A stretch of DNA of 64,000 nt, taken from the NCBI GenBank assembly GCA_029262315.1, contig JAJCZP010000108.1, forward strand, positions 21,449 to 85,448, read 5' to 3'. The translations under genes were made by a program, and so were the position numbers. This document shows positions 26,180-46,975 of the stretch, one piece after another. The DNA comes from Deltaproteobacteria bacterium (GTDB lineage: Bacteria > Desulfobacterota > Binatia > UTPRO1). Position 1 is the first letter of the stretch, and every line of letters starts with the position of its first letter. The notes under the pieces are model-generated. The model did no database searches, was not told the DNA's origin, and saw nothing but the letters and a program-made list of their open reading frames with translations.

Positions 26180-26649
26180 TCCGGGCTCGTGTCGTCGCCC
26201 GGTGTCCGCTCGACGAGCGCTAGCGCGATAAAGTCACTTTCGGTCACGATGCCCACGAGTTTTCCCGCGTCGACCACCGGGAGGCAGCCGATCTGGTGCT
26301 GCAACATGAGGGCGGCCGCCGTTGCAACAGGAGCGTCGGGGCGGATCGTGGTCACGTCGGTCGTCATGACCTCCTTGATCGCGAGGCTCGCCATCATCTT
26401 GTCCTGCGCAACCGTTCCGTAGCCGAGAGCCTTGGCGAGCGCCCCCCGAAACATGTCGCGTTGACTGAGGATGCCGACGACCGCACCGTCCTCGTCCAAG
26501 ACGGGCAGGTGCCGAAAACGCTTCTGTGTCATAACCTGGTCGGCAAGCGAGAGTTCGTCGTTTCGTCCGAGCGTCTGGACCGCAGGAGCCATGAGGTCAC
26601 GCACACGCATCCCGATCTTCTGTTCGTTCATCGCCGCATGGGCAGTCAT
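26176..26649 (-). CDS. CBS-domain pair protein
   Basis: VRDLM, FRHLPVLD..VVGILSQRD, IGCLPVVD..LVGIVTESD. ATGA overlap with the hemerythrin gene. Confidence 0.92.
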   Translation of the reverse strand: MTAHAAMNEQKIGMRVRDLMAPAVQTLGRNDELSLADQVMTQKRFRHLPVLDEDGAVVGILSQRDMFRGALAKALGYGTVAQDKMMASLAIKEVMTTDVTTIRPDAPVATAAALMLQHQIGCLPVVDAGKLVGIVTESDFIALALVERTPGDDTSPE

Positions 26650-27227: not shown

Positions 27228-27241
27228 AGCCGTCTAGCCAG

Positions 27242-27257
27242 TGCAGGAACCGTTCCA
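27242..27257 (-). promoter_or_regulatory. sigma-54 promoter (TGGAACG-GTTC-CTGCA)
   Basis: GG-N10-GC on the minus strand, 15 nt from the hemerythrin ATG. Confidence 0.68.
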
Positions 27258-27310
27258 CCGGCCGCTAACTACGGGTTGTCGCGGAAATGCGGAGGCGTCG
27301 ACACTCCACT

Positions 27311-27326
27311 CTCCCATTTCTGGGAA
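27311..27326. promoter_or_regulatory. palindromic operator CTCCCA-N4-TGGGAA
   Basis: Recurring motif ~54 bp upstream of a sigma-54 match. Confidence 0.65.
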
Positions 27327-27361
27327 TCGTGACTTCGGGGCGCGCTCGCGACTATGCGACG

Positions 27362-27718
27362 CTAGCGCACCAGCCGGTGGATTTGCTGGTGCAGGTGATC
27401 GTAGTCGATGGGCTTGCTGAGCGTGTGCACGAAGTCGCGCCCTCGGTCGTCCGGCTCGGCGAAGCGCCCCCCGAGGTAGACACTCACCAGCAGAACGGGG
27501 AGCCGTGGATGTACGCGGTGGAAGCGATTGGCGAGTGCGATGCCGTGCTCCCCCGGCAGCAGATACTCGACAATGACCATTTCGACGTGGCGCAGATCTT
27601 CGAGCGGCGGTACATCTGCAGGCCTTGCGAAATCGAGAACCTGGTGCCCGTCGTCGCGCAGCATCTGAGCTAGACCAGTTCGGAACGGATCGTCGAAGTC
27701 GACGAGGACAATCGGCAT
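27362..27718 (-). CDS. single-domain response regulator, atypical (Asp acceptor replaced by Glu)
   Basis: IVLVDFDD, MVIVEYLLPGEHG, PVLLVS, LSKPID. Confidence 0.8.
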   Translation of the reverse strand: MPIVLVDFDDPFRTGLAQMLRDDGHQVLDFARPADVPPLEDLRHVEMVIVEYLLPGEHGIALANRFHRVHPRLPVLLVSVYLGGRFAEPDDRGRDFVHTLSKPIDYDHLHQQIHRLVR

Positions 27719-27722
27719 CTTG

Positions 27723-29444: not shown

Positions 29445-29502
29445 GCGCAAGAGTGTGCGGATAGGGTCCCCGACGTCAAGCACACGTACGGGAGCGCGAC
29501 TC

Positions 29503-29518
29503 TTCCCAAGATCGCGAA
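29503..29518. promoter_or_regulatory. palindromic operator TTCCCA-N4-CGCGAA
   Basis: Recurring motif in the divergent HK / WS-DGAT region. Confidence 0.5.
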
Positions 29519-29590
29519 TCGCCTCCTGCGAGCTTCTCGAATCTCGGAGGAAGCCCACCGAACAATAAGGGATCTTACCATCCGCCGCGG

Positions 29591-29606
29591 CGGCATTCTC
29601 CGTGCT
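29591..29606 (+). promoter_or_regulatory. sigma-54-like promoter (CGGCATT-CTCC-GTGCT)
   Basis: GG-N10-GC spacing; weaker match. Confidence 0.5.
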
Positions 29607-29616
29607 TAAGGTTTAC

Positions 29617-31524
29617 GTGCTCGGCAATCTTCAGGCTCTGGATCCGCGTAAGGAGCGCTTGTCCCCGCTCGACGCGGCCTTTCTCTATCTCGAGCAGCAG
29701 CGACAGCCGATGCACGTCGGGTGTCTGGCGGTCCTCGACGGTTGCGTGCCGTTCGAGTCGTTCAGAGAGACGCAGGGGCAGCGCCTCGGCCGACTACGTC
29801 GCTACCGTCAGCGACCGATTCGACCACCGTTCGATCTGATCTTGCCTATCTGGGAAGCCGATCCAGCGTTCGATCCCAGCTACCACATTCGGCACGTGAG
29901 GCTACCGACGCCCGGGGGCGAGACCGAACTCCATCGGGTTGTCGACGAACTATTCGCCGCTCCGTTCGATGCGCGGCGTCCCCTTTGGGAGATCTACTTG
30001 ATCGACGGCTACGAGGGCGGTCGATCCGCGATGCTGATGAAGGTGCATCACTGCATGATCGACGGCGTCAGCGGCGCGCAGGTCTTGGAAGTGATGACCG
30101 ACGCCACGCCGGACGCGTCTACGGCTCCGTCGCCGGTTCGAGGCAACGGTCGGGGGCATAGCAGCGGATTGGTGTCGTCGAGTGTCTCGACGTTGTCGCG
30201 GTGGCAGAGCGCTGCGGCCGCTGCCCCGGCAGACGTTCTCCACTTCGCACGCAGCGCCCTGGGGGCCGTCGGCGTCGTAGGGGAATTTGCGCGCCAGCCC
30301 ATCTCGCGTCTTCCGATCAACGGTCCGCTTTCGCACGGCCGGCGAGTCGTCTGGGCGACCTTTCCCCTCGACGACTTCCTGGCCATGCGCGGGGCCGCCA
30401 CCTGCAAGGTGAACGACATCGTGCTGACGGTGATCGCCGGCGCCCTGCGGAGCTACCTGGGGCGCCACGGCGCAACGATCGACGAGCGCGGCGTACGTGC
30501 GCTCGTGCCGGTCAGCGTTCGCAGCGCGGGCGAGCACCTCACGCTCGGCAACCGGGTGAGCGCGATGATCACCACCCTGCCTCTCGATATCGCGGATCCC
30601 CTCGAACGCTTGCAGGCGATCGCCCGTGAAACGCGCGCACTGAAGGACCGCGGACAGCGGGAAGCGTTCGACTTTTTACTCGCCGCGGCCGGGGTGTTCC
30701 CAGCTCCCGTCGGGGCATCGCTGGCGCGCCTCGCCGAATCCTGGCCGGTCGTGCACACCGTGTGCACGAATGTGCCAGGGTCTCCGCACGTTCGCTACGT
30801 CCTGGGGTGCCCCGTGCGCGAGATGCACCCCATCGTCCCCCTGGGCGTCGGCGTCGGCCTCGGTTTCGCGATCTTGAGCTACGGCGGCACGCTCTCGATC
30901 TGCGCGACCGCGGATGCCGGACTCGTCCCTGACGCCGACGCGATTGCAGATGCCCTCGCGTACTCCGCGGCCGAACTGCGCGCACGTCTCGACGTCGAGC
31001 CCGCGAACGCTCCGGCTCCCACGCTTGCTGACCTGACTCCAACGATCGCCGCTCTGATGACGCGGGATACGGTTACGCTCGAACCCGAAGATCCGGTGTC
31101 CTGGGCCTGGGAGACGATGAACCGTCATCGGATCCGTCACCTCCCGGTGATCGACCACACGAGACGCCTCGTCGGCGTCGTCACGCATCGAGACTTGCTG
31201 GCGGCGGCCGACAGCACGCTCTCTTCTCCCGAGGGCTCGGCACGTCCGAGGCTGCGGCCCTGGGTGCGCGTGGAGGACGTCATGGAGGCCCACGTGAGTA
31301 CCGTCACGGCTGACGACTCGGCGGCCGAGGCCGGGCGTCGCATGGTCCGCCACAAAATTGGTTGTCTCCCCGTCGTCGGAGCTGGCGGGGAACTGAAGGG
31401 CATCATCACCGAGGAAGACTTCATGCGCTGGGCGACTGAACACATGGGCGGCCCTCTCCCGGCGGCGAACGCGCGCAATGCCCATGGCGAAGGAGTGAGC
31501 ACATGTCGATCGAAACCTACATGA
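29617..31524 (+). CDS. WS/DGAT acyltransferase fused to C-terminal CBS pair
   Basis: LSPLDAAFL, PMHVG, HHCMIDG, TNVPG, then in frame LMTRDTVTL..IRHLPVID..VGVVTHRD..IGCLPVV..GIITEED. Start 29617 or 29602. Confidence 0.9.
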   Translation: MLGNLQALDPRKERLSPLDAAFLYLEQQRQPMHVGCLAVLDGCVPFESFRETQGQRLGRLRRYRQRPIRPPFDLILPIWEADPAFDPSYHIRHVRLPTPGGETELHRVVDELFAAPFDARRPLWEIYLIDGYEGGRSAMLMKVHHCMIDGVSGAQVLEVMTDATPDASTAPSPVRGNGRGHSSGLVSSSVSTLSRWQSAAAAAPADVLHFARSALGAVGVVGEFARQPISRLPINGPLSHGRRVVWATFPLDDFLAMRGAATCKVNDIVLTVIAGALRSYLGRHGATIDERGVRALVPVSVRSAGEHLTLGNRVSAMITTLPLDIADPLERLQAIARETRALKDRGQREAFDFLLAAAGVFPAPVGASLARLAESWPVVHTVCTNVPGSPHVRYVLGCPVREMHPIVPLGVGVGLGFAILSYGGTLSICATADAGLVPDADAIADALAYSAAELRARLDVEPANAPAPTLADLTPTIAALMTRDTVTLEPEDPVSWAWETMNRHRIRHLPVIDHTRRLVGVVTHRDLLAAADSTLSSPEGSARPRLRPWVRVEDVMEAHVSTVTADDSAAEAGRRMVRHKIGCLPVVGAGGELKGIITEEDFMRWATEHMGGPLPAANARNAHGEGVSTCRSKPT

Positions 31525-31940
31525 CGCACCCAGTACATGGCGTAAAGCCGCTGGATACGATCCAGCATGCACGTGAGTTGATGGTGCAGCACCGGGTCAA
31601 CCAACTACCCGTGCTCGTCGATCAGCGACTCGTCGGTATCGTGACCGATCGTGATCTGCGGGATGCCTTTCCGTCAGTATTCCGGGATGGGAAGCCACCG
31701 GGAGCCGATGCCGACCCGAGTCGGATCAGCGTCGAGACCGTGATGACGGCGAACGTCCTCACCCTGACGCTCGAAGACTCGATGGCGGATGCCGCACGTC
31801 TCATGCGCAGGGAGCGCGTCGGCGCTATTCCCATCGTTGCCGACGGGCGGCTCGTGGGCATGGTGGCGCGCAGCGACGTCCTGGACGCATACGTAGGATT
31901 GGCGCAATTGGCCGCGAGCACGCAGGCCGCCGCCTCGTAG
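31503..31940 (+). CDS. CBS-domain pair protein (AcuB-like)
   Basis: AGGAG SD; VNQLPVL..LVGIVTDRDLR, GAIPIV..LVGMV.RSD. Confidence 0.92.
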   Translation: MSIETYMTHPVHGVKPLDTIQHARELMVQHRVNQLPVLVDQRLVGIVTDRDLRDAFPSVFRDGKPPGADADPSRISVETVMTANVLTLTLEDSMADAARLMRRERVGAIPIVADGRLVGMVARSDVLDAYVGLAQLAASTQAAAS

Positions 31941-31962
31941 ATAGCCGGCGTCGTGACCTGTC

Positions 31963-32475
31963 GTGCGCGCGACCTCGGATCCGCATATTCGTTCGCTCGC
32001 TCGACTCTTCCGTGAGCATCCCGCCTGGCGTGCGGCCGCGCAGCACATCGCGGAAGGCGCGTCGAGCAAGGTGTTCTTCAGTCATCGGCCCGACGACCAC
32101 TGGCATCTCGTGCGTCGAGACGGCCAGAGCCTGATCCTGCCCGGCGCGGCGCATGATCCCGATCTCGCTTTTCGCTTCACGCCGATCGCGATTCAGCGCC
32201 TGGCCGAGGCGCAGGGAGACCTGGCCGACATCGCCGTCGTGCTGTTTGATCTGATCGCCAACGATGATGAGGACGTACGTATCGGTTTTCGCGTGGTGGC
32301 TCCGTTCTGGCGTCTGGCCCGACACGGCTACCTAGGCCTACTCGTGATCGCCGGACCGAAGCTCGTCGCCTACGGGGTCCGGCACGGCCTACGCACGCTT
32401 GCCGACTTGCAACGGCTGATCGCAGCCTCCCAGGCCTCCGCGCCCGCGGAGTGGGAGCGCGAGGCACCGTCCTAG
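31963..32475 (+). CDS. hypothetical protein, possible SCP2-like lipid-binding fold
   Basis: Coding-like composition. W.L....G....PG.A.DPD..F pattern resembles SCP2 (weak). Confidence 0.6.
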   Translation: MRATSDPHIRSLARLFREHPAWRAAAQHIAEGASSKVFFSHRPDDHWHLVRRDGQSLILPGAAHDPDLAFRFTPIAIQRLAEAQGDLADIAVVLFDLIANDDEDVRIGFRVVAPFWRLARHGYLGLLVIAGPKLVAYGVRHGLRTLADLQRLIAASQASAPAEWEREAPS

Positions 32476-32554
32476 TTTGGCGCTTGGCGTTCCGTGCTTG
32501 CAGTCGTTCGTTCATACGGGGACACTCAGGTGGGATGCGAACGGGGATTGGCCG

Positions 32555-32989
32555 GTGAATTCAGGGAAGCAGCGAATGCTAGTGATTGCAGTGGCCTTGC
32601 TCGCGCTCGGCGCCGGCGCCAACCCCGAGACCGTGACGCTCAAGTATCTCGAGGGCAAACGCGCGCCGGTCGTATTGCCGCACCAGGCCCACGTGGTCGA
32701 CTACAAGGGTCCCGGTGGAGCCACCATCGCGTGCCGGGATTGTCACCACACGCTCACCGCCGACGATGCCGAGGTCAAACCGTGCGTTAGCTGCCATGCC
32801 CTACCGAATCAGCCGATGGCGACGCACGGGGGCGTCGAGCCGCCACGATACGCCGTCGAGAAGAAGCCCGGCGTCTTCGACATCAAGACACTGGTTGCGC
32901 ACACCCAATGTTTCGAAGGATGCCACAAGCAGCTCCCCGCTCGCCAAGCCAAAGCGTTGAAGAAGTGCGCGGCGTGCCATCCCAAGTAG
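32555..32989 (+). CDS. class III (c3-type) tetraheme cytochrome c
   Basis: Signal peptide, PV.LPH.AH, CRDCHH, CVSCH, H..CFEGCH (CX3CH), CAACH. Alternative ATG at 32576. Confidence 0.85.
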   Translation: MNSGKQRMLVIAVALLALGAGANPETVTLKYLEGKRAPVVLPHQAHVVDYKGPGGATIACRDCHHTLTADDAEVKPCVSCHALPNQPMATHGGVEPPRYAVEKKPGVFDIKTLVAHTQCFEGCHKQLPARQAKALKKCAACHPK

Positions 32990-33016
32990 CCACGTAGCAC
33001 CGACCCGATGTCGTGC

Positions 33017-34036
33017 TCACCGTGCACGCGGATCCGTCGTTCTCACGCGCTCCAACAATGTCGCGGCGCCCCGCACCTCGAAGGTGCCATCTAGGGTGAT
33101 CATCGCCGCCAGGTCCTCGCGCGCCTGCGCGAGCGCCAGTCCCTTTCGTGGGCCGGCCACAAACACCGCGGTCGCGTAGGCGTCGGCAAGCATACAGCTC
33201 GAGGCGCGCACCGTGACCGATGCCAGACCACGAGCAGGGAGGCCGGTCCCGGGGTCCAACAGATGATGGTAGCGCTTGCCGTCCCTGATGAAGAAGCGCT
33301 CGTAGTTGCCGCTCGTGGCCAGGGCCTCGTCTTCGATCTCGATACTCCCGTACAGGTTGTCGCCGCGTGGATCCCTAATGCCCACGCGCCACCGCTCTTT
33401 CCCGTTGCGTCCCGAGGCGTACACGTCACCACCGGCTTCGATGAGGTGGTCTCGATAGCCCGACCCACGCAGGCTCGCACTCGCGCGGTCGATCGCGTAC
33501 CCCTTGGCGATCCCCCCCAGCGCAAGCTTCATCCCCTCGCGAGCCAGGCGCACGGTTCGCGCCTGGGCATCCAGTTCCACCCATCGGTAGTTGATCAGCG
33601 CGACGCGCTCCGCGAGCTCGGCGGCGGTGGGGATCCGCGCATCCTGCCACCGGAAATCCCAGGCGCCCCACAGCGCGCCGATCGTCACGTCGAAGGAGCC
33701 ACCAGAATCCACAGACACACGCTGGGCGACTCGGAGGACGTCGAAGACGTCGGGCCCCACGCTGACGGCCTGTCCCCCAGCCTGCGCGTTGATCCTGGCG
33801 ACGTCCGTGCCGGGTTTCCACTCCGACAGCGCCGCCTCCACACGCGCGATCTCGCCAAAGGCACCGTCGATCGCGCGCAGTACCTCTGACGTCCGAGGCG
33901 CGGTTACAGTGATGGTGACCCATGTCGCCATGTGCTCCTGGCGACGTACGACACTGGCAAAGTCGCCCCACGCCGGCGCATCGGCGAGCGTAAGGGCGAC
34001 CAGCAGCATCAACGACGCTTGTGCTCGGGTACCCAT
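33017..34036 (-). CDS. apbE: FAD:protein FMN transferase
   Basis: MATW..I, FDVTIG, LGGIAKGY..D, AGGD, ATSGNYERF, YHHLLDP.TG, ADAYATA. Alternative start at 34009. Confidence 0.93.
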   Translation of the reverse strand: MGTRAQASLMLLVALTLADAPAWGDFASVVRRQEHMATWVTITVTAPRTSEVLRAIDGAFGEIARVEAALSEWKPGTDVARINAQAGGQAVSVGPDVFDVLRVAQRVSVDSGGSFDVTIGALWGAWDFRWQDARIPTAAELAERVALINYRWVELDAQARTVRLAREGMKLALGGIAKGYAIDRASASLRGSGYRDHLIEAGGDVYASGRNGKERWRVGIRDPRGDNLYGSIEIEDEALATSGNYERFFIRDGKRYHHLLDPGTGLPARGLASVTVRASSCMLADAYATAVFVAGPRKGLALAQAREDLAAMITLDGTFEVRGAATLLERVRTTDPRAR

Positions 34037-34422
34037 TGATCGACGAGGGCTTGCAGCACGTCGGTACGGCAGATCAGCCCCACGAGCTGCCCATCGCGCA
34101 GGACTGGAAAACGTCGGTACGGGCCGGCCAGGAATTTCTCGATCGCTTCGATCAGGGTGGCATCGGGATGCAGGGTCTCCACATCTTTCGTCATGTACTC
34201 GGCGACCGTGCCGCCCCAGTCGCGATGATAGCTCGCGTTGAAGGCGACCCGCAGACAATCCTTCTTGGAGAGCACGCCCACCAGCCGCGCCCGATCGTCT
34301 ACGACAGGCGCACCCGAGATGTGCTCGGCGAGCAACACCCCCATGGCCTTGTTGATCTCCATGTCCGCCGTCAGTGTGACGAGATCGGTCGCCATGCAAT
34401 CGGCGACGGTCGGTGTCTCCAT
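34009..34422 (-). CDS. CBS-domain pair protein inside nqr operon
   Basis: ISGAPVVD..LVGVLSKKD, RRFPV..LVGLICRTD. Confidence 0.9.
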   Translation of the reverse strand: METPTVADCMATDLVTLTADMEINKAMGVLLAEHISGAPVVDDRARLVGVLSKKDCLRVAFNASYHRDWGGTVAEYMTKDVETLHPDATLIEAIEKFLAGPYRRFPVLRDGQLVGLICRTDVLQALVDQWVPEHKRR

Positions 34423-34584
34423 CTATCCGTGCTCCTTGCAGGGCTTGGGGCAGGCCTCACAGGCCCCCAAGACCGCCAGCCCGCCGCACGTACCCCGAAG
34501 GGGGGCACGCCCGAACAACACCCCGATGCTCAGGCCGCCCACGGAGAGCAGCACGATGATGAGCGCGAAAAAAACCGTCGTCAT
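34423..34584 (-). CDS. nqrM: NQR maturation factor NqrM (DUF539), 53 aa, missed by ORF track
   Basis: Hand translation MTTVFFALIIVLLSVGGLSIGVLFGRAPLRGTCGGLAVLGACEACPKPCKEHG: TM helix, GxCGG and further Cys, AGGAGG SD, directly after nqrF. Confidence 0.85.
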   Translation of the reverse strand: MTTVFFALIIVLLSVGGLSIGVLFGRAPLRGTCGGLAVLGACEACPKPCKEHG

Positions 34585-34602: not shown

Positions 34603-35820
34603 CTAGTTGCCAAAGTCATCGAAGTAGATCTGCTCGCGCTCCACACCAAGATCATCCAACATGGCCAGCACGGCCTTGGCCATCAACGGGGGCCCGCAGA
34701 GGTAGTACTCGCAGTCTTCCGGAGCAGGGTGATCGTCGAGGTGCTGTGCCAGCACGACTTCGTGGATGAACCCCGTGGCCCCCTCCCATCCGTCCTCGGG
34801 CTTTGGCTCGGACAGGGCGACCGTCCAGCTGAAGTTCTCGTGCCGGCGCTGCAGCGCGTCGAACTCCTCGATGTAGAAGAGCTCTACTCGGCTACGGGCA
34901 CCGTACCAGTACGTCATTTTTCGTCGTGTGCCGACGCTTTCGAGTTGCTCGTGAACGATCGCCCGCAGCGGCGCCATGCCGGCCCCGCCTCCGATCAGCA
35001 CCATCTCGCGCTCCGTCGGCTGCACGTGAAACGTCCCGAACGGTCCCGATGCCGTTACTGCGTCGCCAACATGCAGGCTGAACAAGAAGGATGAAACGAC
35101 GCCGGGGGGTGCACTGCTTCCGGGCGGCGGCAGGGCCAGGCGAACGTCGAGCACAAGGGCTCCTTCGTCCGCGGGGCGGTTGGCCAAAGAGTAGGCGCGG
35201 GTCGTCGGCGTTGGATTGTCGATCGCCAACTCCCGCAATCCGTAGCGCTGCCAGACGGCTTCGTGCTCGGGGGACACCTCAAAGCTCGCGAATGACGCGG
35301 CGTACGGTGGCGCCGCGATTTCCACGAAGGCCCCGGCGCGAAAGGTCATCTCGGCGTCTGGTGGAAGCTCGAGCACGAGCTCTCGAATGAACGGCGCGAC
35401 AGTATACGCCGAACGAATCACGCATTCCCAGGACGCCACTCCGAACAACTCTTCGGGCACGCGCACCGCCAGCGCACTGTGGACGGACACCTGGCACGCC
35501 AGCCGACAGCCCGCTCTGGCTTCCGCGTGCGTGATACGCGAGCGCTCGATGGGCGCCAGCTCGCCACCGCCGCCGGGGATCGTCACGCGACAGAGCCCGC
35601 ACGTGCCCGCGCCACCACAGGCCGAAGGCACGCGTATCCCGCCGTCGTTCAGTACCGCCAGCAGCTTCTGACCGACCTCGGCTGGTAGCGCAGTGTCATC
35701 GTTGACCGTCACCGTGACGGACCCCTGCGGCCGCAACACGCGGCGCGCACCTCGCACGAGCAACACCAGCACGATGACGATGCTGGTAAACAGCACGCTC
35801 CCCGACACGATAGCGGTCAC
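34603..35820 (-). CDS. nqrF: Na+-NQR subunit F
   Basis: [62 protein letters not shown] overlap. Confidence 0.95.
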
Positions 35821-36419
35821 GGCAATGCGATCCCTGCGAACGCCGCGAATCCCAATGACATGAGCCCTGCCAGGATGAACGACATGCCCAGCCCTTGCAG
35901 GCCCCCTGGGATGTCGGCGTAGCGAATGCGCTCGCGGATTGCGGCCAGGGCGATCACCGCCAGGGCCCAGCCCGCACCGGTCCCCGCGCCGTACACCACG
36001 CTCTGTCCGAACGTGTAGTTGCGCTCCACCATGAACAGGCTGCCGCCTAGCACGGCGCAGTTGACGGTGATCAGCGGCAGGAAGATTCCCAGTGCGCGAT
36101 GCAGGCGCGGCACGTACGACTCGAGGAGCATCTCGAGGATCTGCACCATAGCCGCGATTACACCGATGAAGCTGATGAGCTTGAGGAACCGAAGATCGAG
36201 GTCTGGAAGCCCGGCCCACGCCCACGCCCCCTGGTCGAGCAGATGCGTGTAGATCAGATTGTTCACGGGCACGGTCAGCGCTTGCACGACGATGACGGCT
36301 GCTCCAAGCCCCAAGGCCGTATCGACGCGATTGGACACCGCGAGGAACGTGCACATACCCAGGAAGAGCGACAGCGCGAGGTTCTCCGCGAACGCGGCCT
36401 GCAGGAAGAGTTCGATCAT
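35817..36419 (-). CDS. nqrE: Na+-NQR subunit E
   Basis: [38 protein letters not shown]. Confidence 0.95.
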
Positions 36420-37075
36420 CGCTCTTCCCGACGTCCGCCGGTCCGCAGGACGAATTCGGTCGCCTCGATCTGCTCGGGTCGCCGGCTCCGCACCGCCCAC
36501 ACGATCAAGCCCAGCAGGAAGAACGCGCTCGAGGGCAGGAGCATCAGATCGAGAGGCCGATACCACCCGCCGTTTCCCGCGGCCGGTAGCACCGTCAACC
36601 CGAGTAGGGTTCCCGCACCGAGCAGCTCGCGGGTCGCCGCCACGGCGGCCAGGATGGCGCTGTACCCCAGGCCGTTGCCGAGGCCGTCGAGAAAGCTGGG
36701 CCAGGGTGGATTCTGCATCGCGAACGCCTCGGCCCGTCCCAAGACGATGCAGTTGGTGATGATCAGGCCCACGAACACCGACAGGCGCTTGCTCATGCCG
36801 AATGCGTAGGCCTGCAGCACCTGGTCGACGACGATCACGAGGGAGGCGATGATCGTGATCTGCAGAATCAAGCGGATGGAGCGGGGAAGGTGGTGACGGA
36901 TCGCACTGATGAGTGCGTTGGACGTGGCCAGCACCACCGTGAGCGCGACGCACATCACGAGGGCGGTCGAGAGCGACGTGGTTACCGCCAAGGCCGAGCA
37001 GATGCCGAGGATCTGCATCGTGATGGGGTTGTTGCCGACGATCGGCTCGGTGAGGTGGCGCAGGTTGCCCGACAT
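36416..37075 (-). CDS. nqrD: Na+-NQR subunit D
   Basis: [42 protein letters not shown]. Confidence 0.95.
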
Positions 37076-37878
37076 CACGACACGCCCCTCAGTCGCACCA
37101 GGAGCGGACCGAACCCGTGCGGCCCCAGCCAGTAGCGCAGCAGATGCGTCACCCCCAGGCTGGTCCGGGTCGCTCCCGTGATTCCATCCACTCGATGCGG
37201 TCCCTGTCCCGCCCCCTCGGCAACCGCGATCGCCACGTCCCCCTCCGCGTCGAAGACGCGTTTTCCAGACCACAGGGCCTGCCACTTCGGTTCGGTAACG
37301 CGGGTGCCGACTCCAGGGGTTTCCTTCTGCTCGTAGAAGGTGAGGGCAGCAATCGTATTCAGATCCCCTTCGAGGGCGAGGTAGCCGCGGAGCACCGATT
37401 GATAGCCCTTGCCGTAGACCGGGAGCACCACGGAGGCGAGCCTCTCGTCGTCGCGAATCAGATAGACGGTCGCGAACTTGGCGCGCCGGCCCAGTCTGGC
37501 CACGTCGAGTTCGGGGGGGATGGCGATGCTCGTCTGCTCATTTTCCGCGGCCCGGCGGGCGTCATAGGCGGTCGGATCCTGATCGGGGGCTAAGGCACCC
37601 GAAGCAAGGTCGACGACGCTCACCTCCAGCGCCTCGGCGCCGACTCCTTGCAACAACTGTCCGATGCCGGGAGCCCCGCGCAGCATCTGCATCATGCGTG
37701 CACTGTTCTCCGCTTGCAGGTTCGCGTCCTGCCTGGGCTTCAGTAGTACCGCGCTCGCCGACACGACCACCGCACAGATCGCGGACACGAGGAGCGCCAT
37801 ACCGAACGTCTTCTCGGGGCTCTCGTTCGGCAGGGACAGGAACCGTCGCCACCATGACGGTACGGGAATGCTAGGCAT
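37075..37878 (-). CDS. nqrC: Na+-NQR subunit C
   Basis: [26 protein letters not shown], flavinylation motif [11 protein letters not shown]. Confidence 0.93.
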
Positions 37879-39949
37879 GGCGTTGGCGCCTCCACGCGCC
37901 GTGGCCTAGCACCACGAGGTGGTCGATGAGGGGCGCGAAGATTCCGCCCAACAGCAACGCGGACACGACCGGAATGTCTCCCTGGGAGACCCCCAATCCC
38001 CACAAGACGCCGACCAGAAGGCCGTAGAGTACGCGCCCGATCCGCGTGACCGGAGAGGCGACGGGGTCGGTGCCCACGAAGACCGCGGCAAAGGTCAGCA
38101 TATTGATGTCGAAGATGTCAGGAAGAAGTTCGATGGTTCCATAGGAGACGGCCACGGTCGCGGCGGCCATCGCGCCGAGCGTTCGCCAGGAGATGATCCC
38201 CGCCGCCACCAGCAGCACGGCTCCGGGTAGTGTCGCCGCCCACACCACATCGCCTCCGGCGCCATAGCCCAGATCCGGAAAGGAGAACGCCAAGAAGGCG
38301 AGGGCCACGACGGTGGGATGCAGGAAGTTGTACCCCCGGCCGCCGAAGATCTGTTCCCCCATCACGACGCCGAAGCTCGTTCCCAACGCCACCTGCCAGA
38401 GGGGCGCTTCGGGTGGCAGCATGAGCGCGATCGTCGCGGCGGTCGTGATCTGCGGCGCGACCGCGCCCACCGAGAACGGTCGGCGGCGTGCCCAGGTGAA
38501 CAACAGCTGCCAACTTATGCTCGTGATGGCACTGACACCGAGGGCCGCCGCCAACGGGATGCCGGCTTGGCCGAATGCCCAGCCCAGCGGGGGCAGGAGG
38601 GCCAGCAGATAGAGCAACGTGACCCGCGCGTCGCTGTGGGCGGAGCGCACGTGGGGCGCCGCCGTCGTAGCGGGAAGCTTCTCGACGGTTGGCCTGGAAA
38701 CGTCACGACCTGTACGGCTTTGCTCGAGCACTCCGCGCAGGAGTTGGCCGTAGTCGGTCTTGCTCGGACACAGATAGCTGAGCAGAGCGACGTCCTCTTC
38801 GACCATCTCCGACGAGCCCAAGCGCGCGGCCGACTCGGCATCGCCCACACTCAACGCCCGCAGCAGCGGAACCCCCGGAGCACGTAGACTCGGAGCGCGG
38901 TCGTGCGCCCGCAGGGGAACGATAGGACCGGGTGTCCCCCCAAGGGCTGTAGAGCTGGCCCGCCGACGGAACGACACCGCGACCGCCCGTTCCTCTTCGG
39001 GTAGGACGGTGACCTGTCGGTGGTAGCGACCGAGATGGGTCTGACGGCGCCCGTCCAGAACGGATCCCGACAGGATGCGGCTGGGCCCCGCCAGCAACTC
39101 GCCATCGACCAAGGCGTCGATGCTCGCGCCAAGACAGGTGCGCACGAGGCGGGGTGCGCGCACCGAAGGCCCCGCCAGGGACACCACGCGTTCGTTCCAC
39201 ACCGTGCCAGTCGAGATCAAATATCCGATCGCGATCGTGTCCTGGTAACCGAGATGCCACACCACCTGGCCCCCGCCCACGGGATGGAGATAGTGGATGT
39301 GGGTGCCGGGCAAGCCGGCGGGATGCGGCCCGGCGAATGCGACCGCGTTGTCACCGAGGGCAGGGCCCGGTGCCTGGCAGATGTAGACGATACCATCGGT
39401 GAGGTGTTGGAGTGCGCGTGCGCCCGCACGAAACGCCTCGGCGTGCTCGGCAATCACCACGGTTGGGTCTGCCGCGAGCGGCTGGGTGTCGAGGGCGGTG
39501 ATGAAGATCGCGTCGGGGACGGCGTCCGGGTCGGGGATGTAGCCGAAGGGTCGGGCCTGGAAGGCCGGCCACAGGCCGTTCGCACAGAGAAGCTCTCGTA
39601 GTCCGCCCCGGGTCAGTGTACGTGGCGGTCTCGTGCCGCTCCGACCGTTGTTTCCCTCGACAGCGATCGTCACGCATTCAAGCGCGCGCCTCGGTCCGCG
39701 CTTGATCTCGTGAATTCGTCCGGACGCGGGAGCGGCGAACACGATCGCCGGACGGCGACGATCGACGAAGATCGCCGTGCCGGTCTCGACCCAATCCCCC
39801 TGCCGCACGCGCAGGGCCGCGCGAATCCCAGGATAGTCCGCCCCCGTCAACCCGACGGTACCCACCTCCGGTCCACGATGGATTTGCTGACGAGGCGCGC
39901 CGTCGATCGGGACGTCGAAACCTCGGACTTTGATGGTGGTGCGTCTCAC
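37871..39949 (-). CDS. fused NqrA + shortened NqrB/RnfD-like protein (692 aa)
   Basis: NqrA motifs G.D.PI.GAP, APASG, GPHPAGL.GTHIH, SGSVLDG, LGRYH.QV, CPSK.DYG run in frame into APHVRS and NqrB motifs EQIFGG.G.NF, SWR, TDPV.S, FAPLIDH. GTGA overlap with the ATPase stop. Confidence 0.85.
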   Translation of the reverse strand: MRRTTIKVRGFDVPIDGAPRQQIHRGPEVGTVGLTGADYPGIRAALRVRQGDWVETGTAIFVDRRRPAIVFAAPASGRIHEIKRGPRRALECVTIAVEGNNGRSGTRPPRTLTRGGLRELLCANGLWPAFQARPFGYIPDPDAVPDAIFITALDTQPLAADPTVVIAEHAEAFRAGARALQHLTDGIVYICQAPGPALGDNAVAFAGPHPAGLPGTHIHYLHPVGGGQVVWHLGYQDTIAIGYLISTGTVWNERVVSLAGPSVRAPRLVRTCLGASIDALVDGELLAGPSRILSGSVLDGRRQTHLGRYHRQVTVLPEEERAVAVSFRRRASSTALGGTPGPIVPLRAHDRAPSLRAPGVPLLRALSVGDAESAARLGSSEMVEEDVALLSYLCPSKTDYGQLLRGVLEQSRTGRDVSRPTVEKLPATTAAPHVRSAHSDARVTLLYLLALLPPLGWAFGQAGIPLAAALGVSAITSISWQLLFTWARRRPFSVGAVAPQITTAATIALMLPPEAPLWQVALGTSFGVVMGEQIFGGRGYNFLHPTVVALAFLAFSFPDLGYGAGGDVVWAATLPGAVLLVAAGIISWRTLGAMAAATVAVSYGTIELLPDIFDINMLTFAAVFVGTDPVASPVTRIGRVLYGLLVGVLWGLGVSQGDIPVVSALLLGGIFAPLIDHLVVLGHGAWRRQRHA

Positions 39950-42792
39950 GGCTCGGATGGTGTCACAGATCTGCTCGCACCCTCTCCTCTCGTGTCGGAA
40001 CCCGCATTCTGTGCTGGTGTCGGCACTAGTCTTACCAGCTGCCCGATCAAGAGCGGCGTCCAGCTGAGACCTGCGATCACCGCCCACCCAGCGGCATCGG
40101 GGGGCTCGATGTCGAGCACGGCGGCGACGGGCGGGATGTACACCGCCGCGACGAGCAGTGCGGTGCACAACGCCAGCGCTCCCCACACGTACGGGTTCCG
40201 TACGACATCATTCCGAAGGACACCGGATCGTCGTCCCCGCATGTTGAACACGTGCCAGAGTTGCGCGAAGGCCAGGGTGAGAAACGAGACGGTGACGGCG
40301 CCGCTGGGGCCGAGGTCGAGCACCCAGAGCGCGATCAGCATTGCCCCGAGCGTACAGAGTGTCAGGACGAGCGCGTAGCTGGCGATCGTGAGCCAGTGCC
40401 GACGGGCGAGAATCGGCTCTCTGGGATCACGCGGCGGCCGGCGGGCGATCGCAGGATCGCCCTCGCCGGCACCGAGCGCGAGCGCCGGAAACACGTCGGT
40501 GACGAGATTGAGGAACAGTATCTGCAACGGCGTAATGGGGAGCGGCATCTGTGCAACCGACGCGACGGCTATCACCATGACCTCGCTGACGTTACAGGAG
40601 AGAAGATAGAGCACGAACTTGCGGATGTTGTCGAAGATCACGCGCCCCTGCTCGATGGCCATGACGATCGTCGAGAAGGCGTCGTCAAGCAGCACGACGT
40701 CGGCCGCTTCGGCCGCGACCTGGGTCCCGCGCTTGCCCATGGCCACGCCCACGTCCGCCTTCTTGAGTGCTGGAGCATCGTTCACTCCGTCGCCCGTCAT
40801 CGCCACGATCGCCCCCTGCTCTTGGTGGGCGGCGATCAGATTCAGCTTCTGCTCGGGACTGACGCGGGCGAAGATGGCCGCGCCGAGAATGCGCCTCACC
40901 CCCTCGGGCGAGTGCCGGCTCAGCGTCTCGAGTTCGTCCCCGTGGACGACCGGAGCGCCGCCCTCGGCGACGAGGCCCAGAGCCCGCCCGATGGCCCGTG
41001 CCGTTCCCGCCTGATCGCCGGTGACCATGACGATGCGAATGCCCGCCGTCCGGCATGCGTCGATGGCGCCTCGCACGTCGTGGCGCGGGGGATCGAGCAA
41101 ACCGACCAAGCCCACGAACACGAGATCCTCGTACGGCGCCTCGTCCGGCGACGCGACCGTCTTGGTTGCCAGCGCGAGCACGCGGAGCCCGTCGTCGGCT
41201 AAGCGCGCATTGTGCTCGAGCCACTGCGCGCGTGCCCTCTGGTCGAGCGGGCGTTCCCCGTCGCCCGTCAGCACGCGCGACGACGATGAGAGGACGGCTT
41301 CGGGAGCGCCCTTGACCGCTACCCGGAAGGCACCGTCCTCGGCGTGAAAGGTCGCCATCTTTTTCGACTCGGGAAGGAAGGCCTCCTCGCGGACCTCCGG
41401 AGTGCGCTCGAGAAGCGTCGGCCGACGCACCCCTGCGCGGAGGCCCGCGACGAGGAGCGCCACTTCCATCGGGTCACCGGTGCCGCGGCTGTCGGCCGCG
41501 TCATCGGCTGCATCATCGGCCGCGTCGGGCACCTCGGCGTTGTTGCAGAGCACTGCGATTTCCAACGTCCGCCGCAACAACGCTGACGCCCCGGCGTCGA
41601 GCGCCGCCCCAGCGCTCTCGAAGCGACCCCCCACAGCGGCGGTGTCATCGCGAACATCGATCTGGTGTTCGTCGACAATCACACGCGTTACCGTCATCCG
41701 ATTCTCGGTGAGCGTCCCCGTCTTGTCTGTGCAGATGACCGTCGTCGCGCCGAGTGCCTCGACTGCTGATAGGCGATTGACGAGGGCGTTTCGCCGAGCC
41801 ATGCGCCACATGCCACGCGCCAGAGCCAGCGTCGCCACGATCGGCAATCCTTCGGGAACCGTCGCCACGGCCAGCGCGATTCCCGTCTCGATCATCAACA
41901 GGATGTCCTTGCCGGCGAGGACGCCACTGCCGGCGACGATGACGGTCACTGCGAGAGTTACCCAGACGAGGCGCGCCCCCAGATGATCGAGGCGTCGCTC
42001 GAGCGGCGTCCGTTCGGTCTCTGCCTCCTCGACCAACGCCGCGATGCGTCCGATTTCGGCCTGCATGCCGGTCGCGACGACGATTCCCTCTGCTGATCCG
42101 CGCGTGAGCGCCGTTCCCCGGTAGAGCATGTTGCTGCGCTCGGCGAGCGGGGTTTTCGAATCGAGCGCCTCCATCGCTTTGCTCACCGGCGCCGACTCGC
42201 CGGTGAGCATGGACTCATCCGCCTGGAGCTTCGACGCCGTGGCGAGTCGTACGTCGGCCGGCACGAGATCGCCGGCCTCGAGGACTACGATATCGCCCGG
42301 AACCAGTTCCCAAGCGGCACGCTGAACAACCACACCCGCACGGCGCGTCCGCGCTTGCACCTCGCCAAGCCCCCGCAAGGCCTCCATCGACCGCACGGCT
42401 CTCAATTCTGTGACGAACCCGATCGCCGTATTGATCACGACGACGGCGGCGATGGCTACGGCCTCGCGCGCCTCTCCGAACGCCAACGCCAACCCACCGG
42501 CGGCGAGCAATAACAGCACGATGAGGCTTTCGAGCTGGCGCACGAAGACCCGCCAGGCCCGTTCCGGTCGGGCGGTGCGCAGGCGGTTCTCACCGTAGCG
42601 GGTGCGCCGCGACGATACCTCCTCGTCGTCCAGCCCTCTCTCGAGGCCGACGCCGAACGACGCGGCGATCTCCTTCCACCCCAGCGCCCATGGTGCCAAC
42701 GGGTTTCCAGGAGGCTGTGGGGCCGTCGCTGCTATGTCCTGGCCGCGCGCGCACTCGTGCGACGCGTCGAGGGCGGACCCGCGATGATTCAA
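39946..42792 (-). CDS. cation-transporting P-type ATPase, type II (Ca2+/Na+, CtpF/PacL-like)
   Basis: LTGES, PEGL, DKTGTLT, KGAPE, DPPR, TGD, GDGVNDAPAL, NLVTD. TTG start chosen from AGGAG SD. Confidence 0.93.
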   Translation of the reverse strand: MNHRGSALDASHECARGQDIAATAPQPPGNPLAPWALGWKEIAASFGVGLERGLDDEEVSSRRTRYGENRLRTARPERAWRVFVRQLESLIVLLLLAAGGLALAFGEAREAVAIAAVVVINTAIGFVTELRAVRSMEALRGLGEVQARTRRAGVVVQRAAWELVPGDIVVLEAGDLVPADVRLATASKLQADESMLTGESAPVSKAMEALDSKTPLAERSNMLYRGTALTRGSAEGIVVATGMQAEIGRIAALVEEAETERTPLERRLDHLGARLVWVTLAVTVIVAGSGVLAGKDILLMIETGIALAVATVPEGLPIVATLALARGMWRMARRNALVNRLSAVEALGATTVICTDKTGTLTENRMTVTRVIVDEHQIDVRDDTAAVGGRFESAGAALDAGASALLRRTLEIAVLCNNAEVPDAADDAADDAADSRGTGDPMEVALLVAGLRAGVRRPTLLERTPEVREEAFLPESKKMATFHAEDGAFRVAVKGAPEAVLSSSSRVLTGDGERPLDQRARAQWLEHNARLADDGLRVLALATKTVASPDEAPYEDLVFVGLVGLLDPPRHDVRGAIDACRTAGIRIVMVTGDQAGTARAIGRALGLVAEGGAPVVHGDELETLSRHSPEGVRRILGAAIFARVSPEQKLNLIAAHQEQGAIVAMTGDGVNDAPALKKADVGVAMGKRGTQVAAEAADVVLLDDAFSTIVMAIEQGRVIFDNIRKFVLYLLSCNVSEVMVIAVASVAQMPLPITPLQILFLNLVTDVFPALALGAGEGDPAIARRPPRDPREPILARRHWLTIASYALVLTLCTLGAMLIALWVLDLGPSGAVTVSFLTLAFAQLWHVFNMRGRRSGVLRNDVVRNPYVWGALALCTALLVAAVYIPPVAAVLDIEPPDAAGWAVIAGLSWTPLLIGQLVRLVPTPAQNAGSDTRGEGASRSVTPSEP

Positions 42793-42823
42793 GCCAGGTC
42801 TCTCCTGACCGGCAAGCGTCCTG

Positions 42824-43087
42824 TTACAACAGCTTCCGAATGCGTGCGTATCCGGCCGTGAGCTCCTCGCCAACGAGCTTCAGGGCCTCGGCGACCTCGT
42901 GTGCAACCTGGCCAGCCTCCTTCCCCACGACTTTCATTCGTCCCTCCAGGTGCTCCCACTGTTGCTCGAGTTCGCCCCACTCGTCCCGCACGTCCGATTT
43001 GAGTAGGTGCAGCTTGAGTTTGAGCTCGTCTCGCTGTTGGCGCACATCATCGGTCAACCCTTGAAGCTGCTGGCGCGTATCCGTCAT
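42824..43087 (-). CDS. small coiled-coil hypothetical protein (87 aa)
   Basis: GGAGG SD; QQRDELKLKLHL...DEW.ELE..W pattern. First gene of the ATPase-nqr unit. Confidence 0.8.
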   Translation of the reverse strand: MTDTRQQLQGLTDDVRQQRDELKLKLHLLKSDVRDEWGELEQQWEHLEGRMKVVGKEAGQVAHEVAEALKLVGEELTAGYARIRKLL

Positions 43088-45796: not shown

Positions 45797-46975
45797 TCAA
45801 TGCGCCTTCGCCTCTCCCTCACGCACTAGTGCCCAGCGCGTGAGGATCGGCCCGGCGATCTCGAATACTATCGTGCCGGCAACGGTCGCCGTGAGAATCG
45901 TACCTCCCACTTCGGGCAAGCGTTGAGACACGACGAGAGCCAGCCCGATCGCAACGCCCGCCTGCGGGAGCAGCGCCGCGCCGATCGCGGGCGCTGACGA
46001 CACGCGCTCGGAGAGAACAGCACCGAGCCATCCACCTGCGACACGGCCAACTACGCGCAGAAGAACGTACCCGCATACAAGCGTGGCGGTCGCGCCAAGG
46101 TCCGTGACCCGGAACGTTGCGCCGGAGAGCACAAAGAAGAGCACCATGAAGGGCCACTCGATGCCCTCGATCGCCCGGAACGGCCGGAGGTGGTGGCGTG
46201 CAACGTTCGCGACGACCATACCCATGGTCATCGCGGCCAAGAGGAATGAGACCTCGAGGAGCAGCGCGACGCCAGCGCACAAGAAGACACACCCGAGCGC
46301 CTCGGCTTGGGTCGGCTCGCCGGCCCGCACACGACCGGTGAGAAACGCCATCGGGACACCCAGCGCACCGCCAACCAGGATCGCCCCTCCAATCTCGATG
46401 GCGCCGTCCATCACGGCGTGACTCGCTGCATCCGGACTCTGGGTCCCAAGGACCCAGGCCAACACGATGCTCACCATCACGATGCCCCACGCGTCATCGA
46501 TCGCGACGATTCCGAGCAACATCTTCGTGAAGGGTCCCCGCGCGCCGGTTTCGTGCACGACGTCGCTCACGGCGGCCGGAGCAGTCGACGTCCCAATGGC
46601 ACCGAGCAGGAGCGCAACGGGTGCCGGCCACCCGAGCGCAAGCAGTCCGGCGGCGACGACGACGGTCGTCACGATCACGACCACGAGGGAGATCACGAGG
46701 ATCGCGCGGCCCTGCTTCCGCAGCAGCGTCCACGTGAGCTCACCTCCAAGCAGAAAGGCGACCATGACGAGCGCCAGGTCGGTGATGAAGGGGTACCATT
46801 CCGCACTCGATGCCGGAATTGCGCCCAAGCCCAGCGGCCCGACACACACACCCAGCAGCAGCAGCAGAGTCACCCGAGGCAAGCGCGTACGCCGGCCGAG
46901 GACATCCGCGGTGAGGCCCGCGAGGAAGATGAGTCCTAGCGTGAGGAGAATGGTGGCGGTCGAATCGGCGCTCAT
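45797..46975 (-). CDS. cation:proton antiporter (CPA family)
   Basis: ~12 TM, TAPAA, AIDDA, FFVLSGA, PQAGVAIG. Confidence 0.9.
   Translation of the reverse strand: MSADSTATILLTLGLIFLAGLTADVLGRRTRLPRVTLLLLLGVCVGPLGLGAIPASSAEWYPFITDLALVMVAFLLGGELTWTLLRKQGRAILVISLVVVIVTTVVVAAGLLALGWPAPVALLLGAIGTSTAPAAVSDVVHETGARGPFTKMLLGIVAIDDAWGIVMVSIVLAWVLGTQSPDAASHAVMDGAIEIGGAILVGGALGVPMAFLTGRVRAGEPTQAEALGCVFLCAGVALLLEVSFLLAAMTMGMVVANVARHHLRPFRAIEGIEWPFMVLFFVLSGATFRVTDLGATATLVCGYVLLRVVGRVAGGWLGAVLSERVSSAPAIGAALLPQAGVAIGLALVVSQRLPEVGGTILTATVAGTIVFEIAGPILTRWALVREGEAKAH

Follow-up and report, generated by a model that had tools for sequence, protein, structure and literature searches.

The window analysed here is a stretch of 64 000 nucleotides (nt) from contig JAJCZP010000108.1 of a Deltaproteobacteria bacterium (GenBank assembly GCA_029262315.1), and all positions are those of the window. 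It carries an operon of the Na+-translocating type of NADH:quinone oxidoreductase (NQR) with all six modules, nqrA to nqrF, in order on the minus strand (34603-39949), and with A and B in one open reading frame (ORF). This fused gene, nqrAB, is a single uninterrupted ORF of 692 amino acids (aa) at 37871-39949, with a GTG start at 39949 and a stop codon at 37871-37873, inside the start of nqrC, which it overlaps by 8 nt. The start GTG overlaps the TGA of the upstream P-type ATPase gene as GTGA and agrees with the N-termini of the relatives. It was preferred to a GTG further upstream, which opens a frame of 771 aa with a 240-nt overlap with the preceding gene. The window protein is labelled P0001, and P0002 is the same protein in the protein search.

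Domain structure of the fused protein

The NqrA part, residues 1-415 (38705-39949, minus strand), contains the Pfam domains NQRA_N (residues 9-98), NQRA_2nd (113-249), and NQRA_SLBB (255-302), followed by a C-terminal helical region that ends ...LLRGVLEQSRTG. The NCBIfam nqrA model TIGR01936 scores the fusion at 358.8 bits, against a cut-off of 321, and Foldseek matches this part to V. cholerae NqrA chains with template modelling (TM) scores on the target of 0.83-0.91. Residue ~415 is also where the standalone NqrA relatives end. A linker of ~17 aa (residues ~416-432; 38654-38704, minus strand) then connects the NqrA C-terminus to the NqrB N-terminus. Standalone short NqrB relatives begin at fusion residues 427-434, and in the AlphaFold2 (AF2) model the predicted local distance difference test (pLDDT) falls below 50 at residues 428-432.

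The remaining 260 aa, residues 433-692 (37874-38653, minus strand), form an NqrB-type membrane core, as judged from the Pfam family NQR2_RnfD_RnfE (PF03116), fold and sequence matches, and the AF2 model. PF03116 is matched in two stretches, the first pairing residues 428-559 with profile positions 2-132 and the second covering positions 168-290, so that 35 positions (133-167), in the region of the flavin mononucleotide (FMN) loop, are unmatched. Against the NCBIfam nqrB models the B part scores 104-114 bits (cut-offs 350-414) and against the rnfD model 95 (cut-off 207), while Foldseek gives TM-scores on the target of 0.53-0.59 to NqrB and 0.61-0.71 to RnfD. The AF2 model of the fusion, made from an 88-row alignment (A3), has a pLDDT of 85.9 and a predicted TM-score of 0.81. 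It places helices in the B part at residues 440-462, 464-487, 494-510, 517-534, 545-556, 570-582, 588-604, 616-626, 636-656, and 661-691. Since these are ten helices, the losses described below would, on this model, be of loops and termini, with the core untrimmed. The claim of an earlier note on this DNA, that nqrAB is one uninterrupted 692-aa NqrA-NqrB frame, is borne out by the three NqrA domains, the linker, and the B core. The source genome (99.96% complete, 298 contigs) has one PF03116 locus and one NqrA locus only; thus, there is no separate NqrB or RnfD able to substitute for the B part.

Losses from the B part

In a phmmer alignment with Protein Data Bank (PDB) sequences, B-part residues 475-574 align with V. 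cholerae NqrB 138-230. GDVVWAA pairs with GDLVWTAA of V. cholerae NqrB (residues 222-229), which stands directly before D230-G-Y-S-G-A-T236 (9lrr_B/7xk3_B). After this point about 45 canonical residues, including T236, are replaced by TLPG, and the next helix follows at once (...AVLLVAAGIISWR). Gone with these residues are the DGYSGAT motif, the periplasmic excursion, and the PGSIGE stretch (with E274, as read from the alignment). What is left at the site, residues 558-576 (PDLGYGAGGDVVWAATLPG; 38222-38278, minus strand), is a short turn between helices V and VI. MAFFT set the short LPG against canonical F[LI]G and not IPG, so the boundaries of the deletion are uncertain by ~5 residues.

The earlier note had claimed that the B part is without the loop for covalent FMN, and we find the same from the alignment, from a search of the B part that found no [ST]GA[TS] motif, and from a spacing of 36-38 residues between FSFP and SWR. 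It had also pointed to a GGDVVWAAT segment (residues ~564-576; 38222-38260). The segment is there, but it is not a degenerate form of the motif, being homologous to the stretch before it. Because GDVVWAA aligns immediately ahead of DGYSGAT, the Thr in WAAT does not correspond to the one that is flavinylated. Furthermore, this Thr is not conserved in the six fused proteins described below, where the position is T, T, V, V, A, and I/V.

The alignment with V. cholerae NqrB starts at residue 41, and the first ~40 residues have no counterpart. Ahead of the B part of the fusion there are only the NqrA C-terminus and the linker, and in the standalone relatives no more than 0-17 residues precede the APH motif. 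Excerpts of PMC12174285, PMC10643135, and PMC12901251 describe the N-terminal region of V. cholerae NqrB as the pocket for quinone, HQNO (2-heptyl-4-hydroxyquinoline N-oxide), and korormicin, with a protruding part that holds NqrA. V. cholerae NqrB residues ~84-137 are also without a counterpart, which makes the N-terminal half of the B part collinear with RnfD 8-138. On these alignments, the NqrB of the fusion cannot carry covalent FMN, and the canonical quinone pocket is absent.

Other fused proteins and maintenance of the fusion

A word-indexed search of 5.8 billion proteins gave, among the best 120 matches, five proteins of 682-693 aa with both NqrA and PF03116; the other 115 were standalone NqrA of 383-477 aa. 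The fused ones are P0002, which is the window's own, P0003, with 75% identity, and P0004, P0005, and P0006, with 45-47%. An exhaustive phmmer search of 1.84 billion representatives of 50% clusters found 4896 matches with E<=1e-3, 613 of them with E<=1e-30. Of the best 150, four are matched continuously over the two halves, namely P0002, P0005, P0006, and one protein not among the earlier five, P0200 (671 aa). A search with the B part for longer proteins returned P0002 and P0003 only, a weak count, as long proteins crowd the word filter, and the exhaustive search of representatives is preferred. The matches listed thus contain six distinct fused proteins (P0001, P0003, P0004, P0005, P0006, and P0200), with 45-76% identity, from ENA, Logan, and JGI. 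In a tree of the B part (86 rows, quick IQ-TREE search, with support only from the Shimodaira-Hasegawa-like approximate likelihood ratio test, SH-aLRT; P0172 left out as a probable chimera), the six fusions form one clade with a support of 95. The fusion arose once, within a clade of short NqrB proteins, and it is a rare sub-lineage, comprising six sequences and four of the 50%-identity clusters.

The relative with 76% identity, locus L016, lies on a 255-kb contig and has the same fused frame and gene order. Comparison with L016 gave a ratio of nonsynonymous to synonymous substitution rates (dN/dS) of 0.152 in each half (NqrA part, 411 codons; B part, 260 codons), at a synonymous divergence, dS, of ~1.1. 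The linker is more relaxed than its flanks, with 0.42 over 20 codons. The values for the two halves agree with the view of the earlier note that the operon is not decaying. Logan contigs from two runs of one study, among which the source sample may be included, cross the junction without a difference or gap. One, X1, is a 3053-nt contig over 38232-39200, and the other, X2, is a 407-nt contig over 38646-39052; a stop or frameshift at the junction, for which a check had been proposed, is found in neither. Contigs X3 and X4 cover part of the B region only, and the pieces of X4 differ at many sites and so are probably from a relative.

Could the fused frame still be an assembly or frameshift error, or the remnant of an inactive operon? 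The source assembly is in 298 contigs, and nqrA and nqrB abut or overlap in unfused relatives, so that a 1-nt error could mimic a fusion. We regard this explanation as scarcely credible. It would have to account for six distinct fused sequences from three sources, for the same frame and gene order in L016, for equal purifying selection on both halves, for junctions unchanged in contigs of two samples, and for scores of all the other subunits that exceed one or more curated family thresholds. Chance can be set aside as well, since the architecture recurs in five other proteins. The fusion is genuine and selectively maintained, and assembly error or decay is excluded for practical purposes.

A wider clade of short NqrB proteins

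With the B part alone as query, 78 matches were obtained. The top 37 (P0122-P0158), which are standalone, 261-286 aa long, and 38-50% identical, carry the source names 'NqrB' or 'RnfABCDGE ... subunit D'; their origins are a Planctomycetota metagenome-assembled genome (MAG), a Rhizobiaceae MAG, and the isolate Pseudogemmobacter sonorensis. The FMN loop and the Thr motif at that site are absent from 37/37 of these short relatives, from the unfused locus L012, and from 6/6 fusions. All six fusions and all 37 short relatives have 36-38 residues between FSFP and SWR; long NqrB and RnfD-like rows have 74-115, except for five short RnfD-like or outlier rows with 38-60. The database search that had been proposed for other fusions and short NqrB proteins has therefore produced both, six distinct fusions and these 37 short standalone relatives.

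A scan of genome contigs found nine loci. Five are canonical (L007, L008, L010, L011, and L014), and L015 is an nqrA fragment. L012, from a Devosiaceae MAG, combines a 407-aa nqrA with a 276-aa nqrB that overlaps it, then C, D, E, F, and apbE. In L013, from a Gammaproteobacteria MAG, the loop is shortened and the nqrB ORF is 263 aa long. In L009, from an Arenicellales MAG (2818-3915), the nqrB of 365 aa retains the long loop, with GGYNGSH in place of DGYSGAT. A metagenome scan with an alignment of short B proteins gave 58 loci: one fused (L016), 54 with nqrA and nqrB in different frames, and three, cut off, without a visible nqrA. The nqrB frames of 55 unfused metagenome loci are likewise short, and the gene order is nqrA-B-C-D-E-F wherever the contig is long enough. 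The ESM Atlas holds clusters of 51-80 short 'RnfD family' proteins, mostly from Pseudomonadota, which we take as a lead only.

The tree separates NqrB-type from RnfD-type proteins with a support of 100, and the short clade (support 97-98) is on the NqrB side. Long forms without the Thr (P0165/P0169, L009/L013) fall between the short clade and canonical NqrB with a support of only 82. L009, P0165, and P0169 may represent steps on the way from canonical to short NqrB. Probably the Thr was lost first and the loop next, and a single fusion to NqrA came last. As far as the sequences indicate, the lack of the FMN carried by NqrB (FMN-B) is a trait of the whole clade, most of which has unfused short NqrB, and is not peculiar to the fusion. 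We consider this clade without FMN-B a more important finding than the fusion itself.

One further protein, P0172 (314 aa, named from Defluviimonas sp. 20V17), combines PF03116, in an N-terminal part like short NqrB, with a PF04205 FMN_bind domain that has GISGAT. It may be either a fusion of B and C or a frameshifted or chimeric call.

Residues kept and changed

Residue counts were made over 6 fused, 38 short (the 37 and L012), and 10 canonical rows, with V. cholerae numbering taken from the phmmer/PDB alignment. G198, D397, and D346 (as D or E) are present in all rows of the three groups (6/6, 38/38, and 10/10 for each). F342 is found in 5/6 fused and 33/38 short rows, and F338 in 5/6 and 32/38. 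Position 200 is Asn in 10/10 canonical rows, 3/6 fused, and 19/38 short, and position 203 is Asn in 10/10 canonical, 2/6 fused, and 12/38 short, with His in 16 of the short rows. The Glu at 157, seen in all nine canonical rows filled at that position, occurs in 0/6 fused and 0/38 short rows; i.e., it has gone from 44/44. D52 is Asp in nine of nine filled canonical rows, 0/6 fused, and 11/38 short, so it has gone from the six fusions and from 27/38 short rows.

The position of K191 is Lys in 10/10 canonical and 27/27 RnfD-like rows and Glu in 5/6 fused and 34/38 short rows, counts of Glu that word- and pattern-based searches may have raised by favouring rows with the GEQIF of the query. In P0001 the equivalent residue is E532 (window ~38354-38356), a charge reversal adjoining the riboflavin loop.

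Hau et al. (Extended Data Fig. 6, legend) and PMC9293633 name the residues in contact with riboflavin. In the window protein these read G198=G, N200=N, N203=H, F342=F, T345=T, and D346=D. According to PMC9293633, N200, N203, and D346 are 'absolutely conserved', and single Ala mutants retain 30-70% of quinone reductase activity, while double mutants lose riboflavin. Excerpts of Hau et al. call the acidic residues of the Na+ path 'strictly conserved'. T503 is invariant among the five fusions of alignment A2. Since most residues of the riboflavin pocket are retained, the B core may still hold a flavin. Our reading is that the pocket is probably largely intact in the window protein and under weaker constraint across the short clade.

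No locus has lost the flavinylation motif of NqrC. Directly after the flavinylated Thr comes Arg (GAT-R) in 34/38 non-canonical loci, Val (GAS-V) in the other four, and Leu (GAT-L) in 5/5 canonical loci. The NqrC proteins of the short clade also have a 5-residue deletion just before the motif. In V. cholerae the equivalent residue is L226, which cross-links to P376 of NqrB in the excerpts of Hau 2023, and this places the position at the contact between NqrC and NqrB. The Arg appears to track the loss of FMN-B, since L009, with a long loop, no Thr, and the Lys kept, already has it.

Operon partners and neighboring genes

All the operon genes below nqrAB are on the minus strand. The nqrC gene (37075-37878, 267 aa) encodes a PF04205 FMN_bind domain with the flavinylation motif VDGITGATR and scores 183 bits with TIGR01938 (cut-off 144). 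It is followed by nqrD (36416-37072, 218 aa; NF006777, 318 bits, cut-off 235), with Cys in GICSALA and ITNCIVLG, and nqrE (35817-36425, 202 aa; TIGR01940, 297.9 bits, cut-off 247.6), with Cys in LGMCTFLA and ITVNCAVLG. By the V. cholerae positions, the two Cys in each of NqrD and NqrE would be ligands of the intramembrane 2Fe-2S cluster. The nqrF gene (34603-35850, ~415 aa, start approximate; TIGR01941, 493.7 bits, cut-off 295) encodes a transmembrane helix and Fer2, FAD_binding_6, and NAD_binding_1 domains. Next come nqrM (34423-34584, 53 aa; PF04400, 31 bits, cut-off 22), a gene for a CBS-pair protein (34009-34422, 137 aa; Pfam CBS), and apbE for the flavin transferase (33017-34060, start approximate; PF02424, 289.8 bits, cut-off 25.6). 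NqrA, C, D, E, and F each exceed at least one NCBIfam equivalog cut-off; ApbE falls below its sole one (NF007774, 115 bits, cut-off 498). These domain and family matches uphold the statement in the earlier note that the other subunits, nqrM, and apbE are intact.

A homologue of the CBS-pair protein follows nqrF, with nqrM or apbE between, in 16 of the 17 non-canonical loci that offer 2.5 kb or more of space, and in 0/3 canonical loci. It is possible that this protein is a nucleotide-sensing regulator or a seventh subunit. There are four CBS-domain proteins within ~8 kb (26176-34422), at 26176-27258, 29602-31524, 31503-31940, and 34009-34422, and that at 29602-31524 is a WS/DGAT acyltransferase with a C-terminal CBS domain.

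The gene upstream of nqrAB encodes a P2-type cation P-type ATPase (39946-42873, minus strand, 975 aa), whose stop overlaps the nqrAB start; the GTGA overlap suggests that the two may be co-translated. Among NCBIfam models this ATPase comes closest to the Ca2+ types PMR1 and SERCA, scoring under the cut-off with both. An ATPase homologue is directly upstream of nqrA in two unfused loci, L023 and L032, and L043 and L047 have matches on the opposite strand. We considered the linkage as a functional clue and set it aside as not general: in the 27 loci where 1.5 kb or more of upstream sequence was available, only L023 and L043 had a match. Located 3 kb upstream of the ATPase-nqr unit is a gene of the Na+/H+ exchanger family (45797-46975, minus strand).

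On the other side, a plus-strand gene for a class III cytochrome c (32477-32989, 170 aa, tetrahaem with four CxxCH) converges on apbE. It is in the same place in L016, and in only L016 among 67 loci tested. Further away, the window has a gene for a pyruvate:ferredoxin oxidoreductase of 1196 aa (51990-55580, plus strand). Elsewhere in the genome there are two NuoD (complex I 49-kDa) loci, at C109:47111-47920 and C88:12590-13342, and two more FMN_bind loci, one on C21, within a 1135-aa open frame, and one on C260.

Recent horizontal transfer of the operon was considered and not adopted. Matches are sparse in relatives of the source genome, with 0/18 in same-family genomes and 1/22 in the other same-order or same-class genomes sampled, and this suggests acquisition. 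The single match among the 22 is a canonical split nqrA/nqrB. The G+C content of the operon, 0.62-0.69, shows no difference from that of its flanks.

Comparison with known systems

The Na+-NQR of V. cholerae (7XK3, 8A1T) has the same gene order, nqrA-B-C-D-E-F, with nqrM and apbE. It shares with the system described here an NqrB core of ten helices, the Phe residues of the gate (F338/F342), the equivalents of D346 and D397, and the flavinylation motif of NqrC. The window system differs in that A and B are one polypeptide and a CBS-pair gene is added. Compared with V. cholerae NqrB, the B part is without the T236 loop, the first ~40 residues, the 84-137 insert, D52, E157, and the PGSIGE stretch, and has Glu for K191. 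In comparison with RnfD (9ERI, 7ZC6, 8AHX), it is collinear with residues 8-138, without the NqrB-specific insert, and is covered better by the RnfD fold than by that of NqrB. However, it is on the NqrB side of the split with support 100, and RnfD retains a flavinylated Thr. Its partners are NqrA, which has no Fe-S cluster and no FMN, and NqrF, and not, as in Rnf, RnfC, which has FMN and two 4Fe-4S clusters, and the poly-ferredoxin RnfB; the NqrA part matched RsxC only at E 0.005.

The two-subunit NQR/RNF-like systems (Meheust et al. 2021, PMC8238504; 10.1101/2024.03.13.584918) are also similar. According to the excerpts of these sources, they likewise have no conserved Thr in the B-like protein, and the NqrC-like partner keeps its own. 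The excerpts describe two genes, with the B-like domain fused C-terminally to an NqrF-type NAD-binding domain and with no NqrA, D, or E, mainly in Actinobacteria and the candidate phyla radiation. By contrast, the window has six NQR modules, PF00175 on a separate NqrF, and a B part whose fusion to NqrA is N-terminal.

Discussion

The fusion belongs to a distinct subfamily, which we name short-NqrB NQR, in which NqrB is reduced to a ten-helix RnfD-like core. By alignment, the subfamily has lost the periplasmic loop between helices V and VI, the N-terminal region of the quinone pocket and NqrA grip, and E157, with D52 also lost in the fusions. The electron-input half (NqrF, NqrD/E, and NqrC) is canonical, and NqrM and ApbE are present. 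The earlier note had pictured electrons that reach the FMN of NqrC but are cut off from the normal route. It is reasonable to think that the canonical route FMN(NqrC) -> FMN(NqrB) -> riboflavin -> quinone could not operate here. That picture was incomplete in other respects, as the loss of the loop is clade-wide, the riboflavin pocket is mostly kept, and the N-terminal quinone region and E157 (in fusions, D52) have been lost as well.

How would electrons pass through such a complex? We favor, with slightly better than even confidence, an NADH-oxidizing variant of NQR in which the FMN of NqrC feeds the NqrB core directly. Electrons would pass from NADH to the flavin adenine dinucleotide (FAD) and 2Fe-2S cluster of NqrF, then to the 2Fe-2S cluster of NqrD/E, and then to the FMN of NqrC, as in canonical NQR. 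Excerpts of PMC12174285 and PMC12901251 describe NqrC as swinging between NqrD/E and NqrB, with FMN-B ~8 A from riboflavin. With FMN-B and the loop gone, the periplasmic mouth of NqrB would be free to receive the mobile domain of NqrC, whose covalent FMN would then reduce a flavin in the largely conserved NqrB pocket; this flavin is probably riboflavin. The electrons would then leave to quinone at a remodeled cytoplasmic interface of NqrA and NqrB. In the canonical enzyme the C-terminus of NqrA and the N-terminus of NqrB interact; it is these two ends that the fusion connects, and the covalent link may stabilize this interface in place of the lost N-terminal clamp. Ion pumping, if retained, would more likely go via NqrD/E than NqrB. 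The direct hand-over from NqrC to the pocket has a precedent, since the same step was proposed from an AlphaFold model of the two-subunit Nqr/Rnf-like complexes. In excerpts of 10.1101/2024.03.13.584918, the Thr of their NqrB/RnfD-like protein is not conserved, and the model puts the FMN of the NqrC-like protein beside a non-covalent flavin site.

Several points weigh against an NADH-oxidizing variant with direct transfer from NqrC. In V. cholerae, the T236Y mutation loses FMN-B and disrupts electron flow (excerpts of PMC12901251). Quinone as the acceptor is an assumption, since the helices of the canonical quinone pocket are gone, and the relaxation of N200 and N203 implies that the flavin may be lost or changed in many members of the clade. 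The genome does not depend on the NQR variant for NADH oxidation, as it has two NuoD loci. In addition, the residue correlations at the level of the clade represent one or two evolutionary events and are not statistics, the metagenome loci were picked in part with a search pattern that includes Glu for K191, and the placing of long Thr-less forms before short ones, at a support of 82, comes from a quick tree search with SH-aLRT only. A complex prediction for the B part with NqrC scored 0.00 in both runs, made without controls, and carries no weight either way.

Two other explanations accept the fusion and differ on the fate of the electrons. In one, the complex is a one-way exporter: electrons stop at the FMN of NqrC on the outer face and go to a periplasmic acceptor such as the neighboring tetrahaem cytochrome c, and a flavin-less NqrAB is a scaffold or an ion channel, in a NAD(P)H-driven transmembrane conduit like those proposed for Nqr/Rnf-like systems. 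The loss of FMN-B, of the N-terminal quinone-pocket region, and of E157 (and, in fusions, D52) speaks for an exporter, and the relaxed N200 and N203 across the clade and the cytochrome gene that converges on apbE, kept in L016, point the same way. Excerpts of PMC8238504 propose unidirectional flow for partial NQR/RNF-like systems. We nevertheless think an exporter unlikely. Purifying selection is equally strong on NqrA and the NqrB core (dN/dS 0.15), and D346, G198, F342, and D397 are nearly invariant, which is hard to explain for a mere scaffold. The cytochrome is found only in L016, the closest relative, among the loci tested, and no role is known for NqrA other than at the NqrB/quinone side.

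The other explanation keeps the four-flavin path without the Thr link: the former place of FMN-B would be taken by an FMN bound non-covalently or by some other cofactor. In its favor, flavins are able to bind without a covalent bond, the helices that surround the site are still present, and the change of K191 from Lys to Glu in most fused and short proteins shows that the site has been remodeled and is not drifting. However, not just the Thr but the entire loop of ~45 residues that wraps FMN-B has been deleted, the V. cholerae T236Y mutant simply loses FMN in the excerpts of PMC12901251, and Lys to Glu would disfavor an FMN with its phosphate. This explanation is, in our judgment, quite improbable.

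Full-text searches of the literature turned up neither an NqrA-NqrB fusion nor an NQR of six modules in which NqrB has no flavinylation site; Supplementary file 1 of PMC8238504 (gene-cluster tables) might list some such operons as 'NQR'. According to excerpts of PMC4014512, Reyes-Prieto et al. 2014 discarded 'fused or chimeric sequences' ahead of their analysis. The reviews PMC12174285 and PMC10643135, in the excerpts used, treat the cofactors of the NQR/RNF membrane core as strictly conserved and build pumping on FMN(NqrC) -> FMN(NqrB) -> riboflavin. A natural clade under purifying selection that has no FMN-B, loop, quinone-pocket helices, or E157 (nor, in the fusions, D52), and retains all the rest, amounts to a 'deletion mutant' made by evolution. 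It can be used to test whether the Na+ path goes via NqrB or NqrD/E, an open dispute between the NQR and RNF fields, and how far the NqrC flavin reaches. It can also test the role of NqrA, as the fusion shows the attachment of NqrA to the NqrB N-terminus to be the part preserved by selection. The short proteins are named NqrB or RnfD in annotation, and their complexes are counted as Na+-NQR in metabolic reconstructions, which may be wrong.

More tentatively, and with rather more doubt than belief, we suggest that short-NqrB NQR may be a distinct and widespread three-flavin respiratory machine, mainly of Alphaproteobacteria and other Pseudomonadota. In this machine the FMN of NqrC would plug into the NqrB core, or electrons would be exported to the periplasm, ion translocation would be uncoupled from NqrB, and the CBS-pair protein would be a nucleotide-sensing seventh component. 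If such a three-flavin class is real, then FMN-B and the Na+ channel of NqrB would be dispensable modules, and the clade would provide a natural minimal system with which to settle the site of ion pumping in NQR and RNF.

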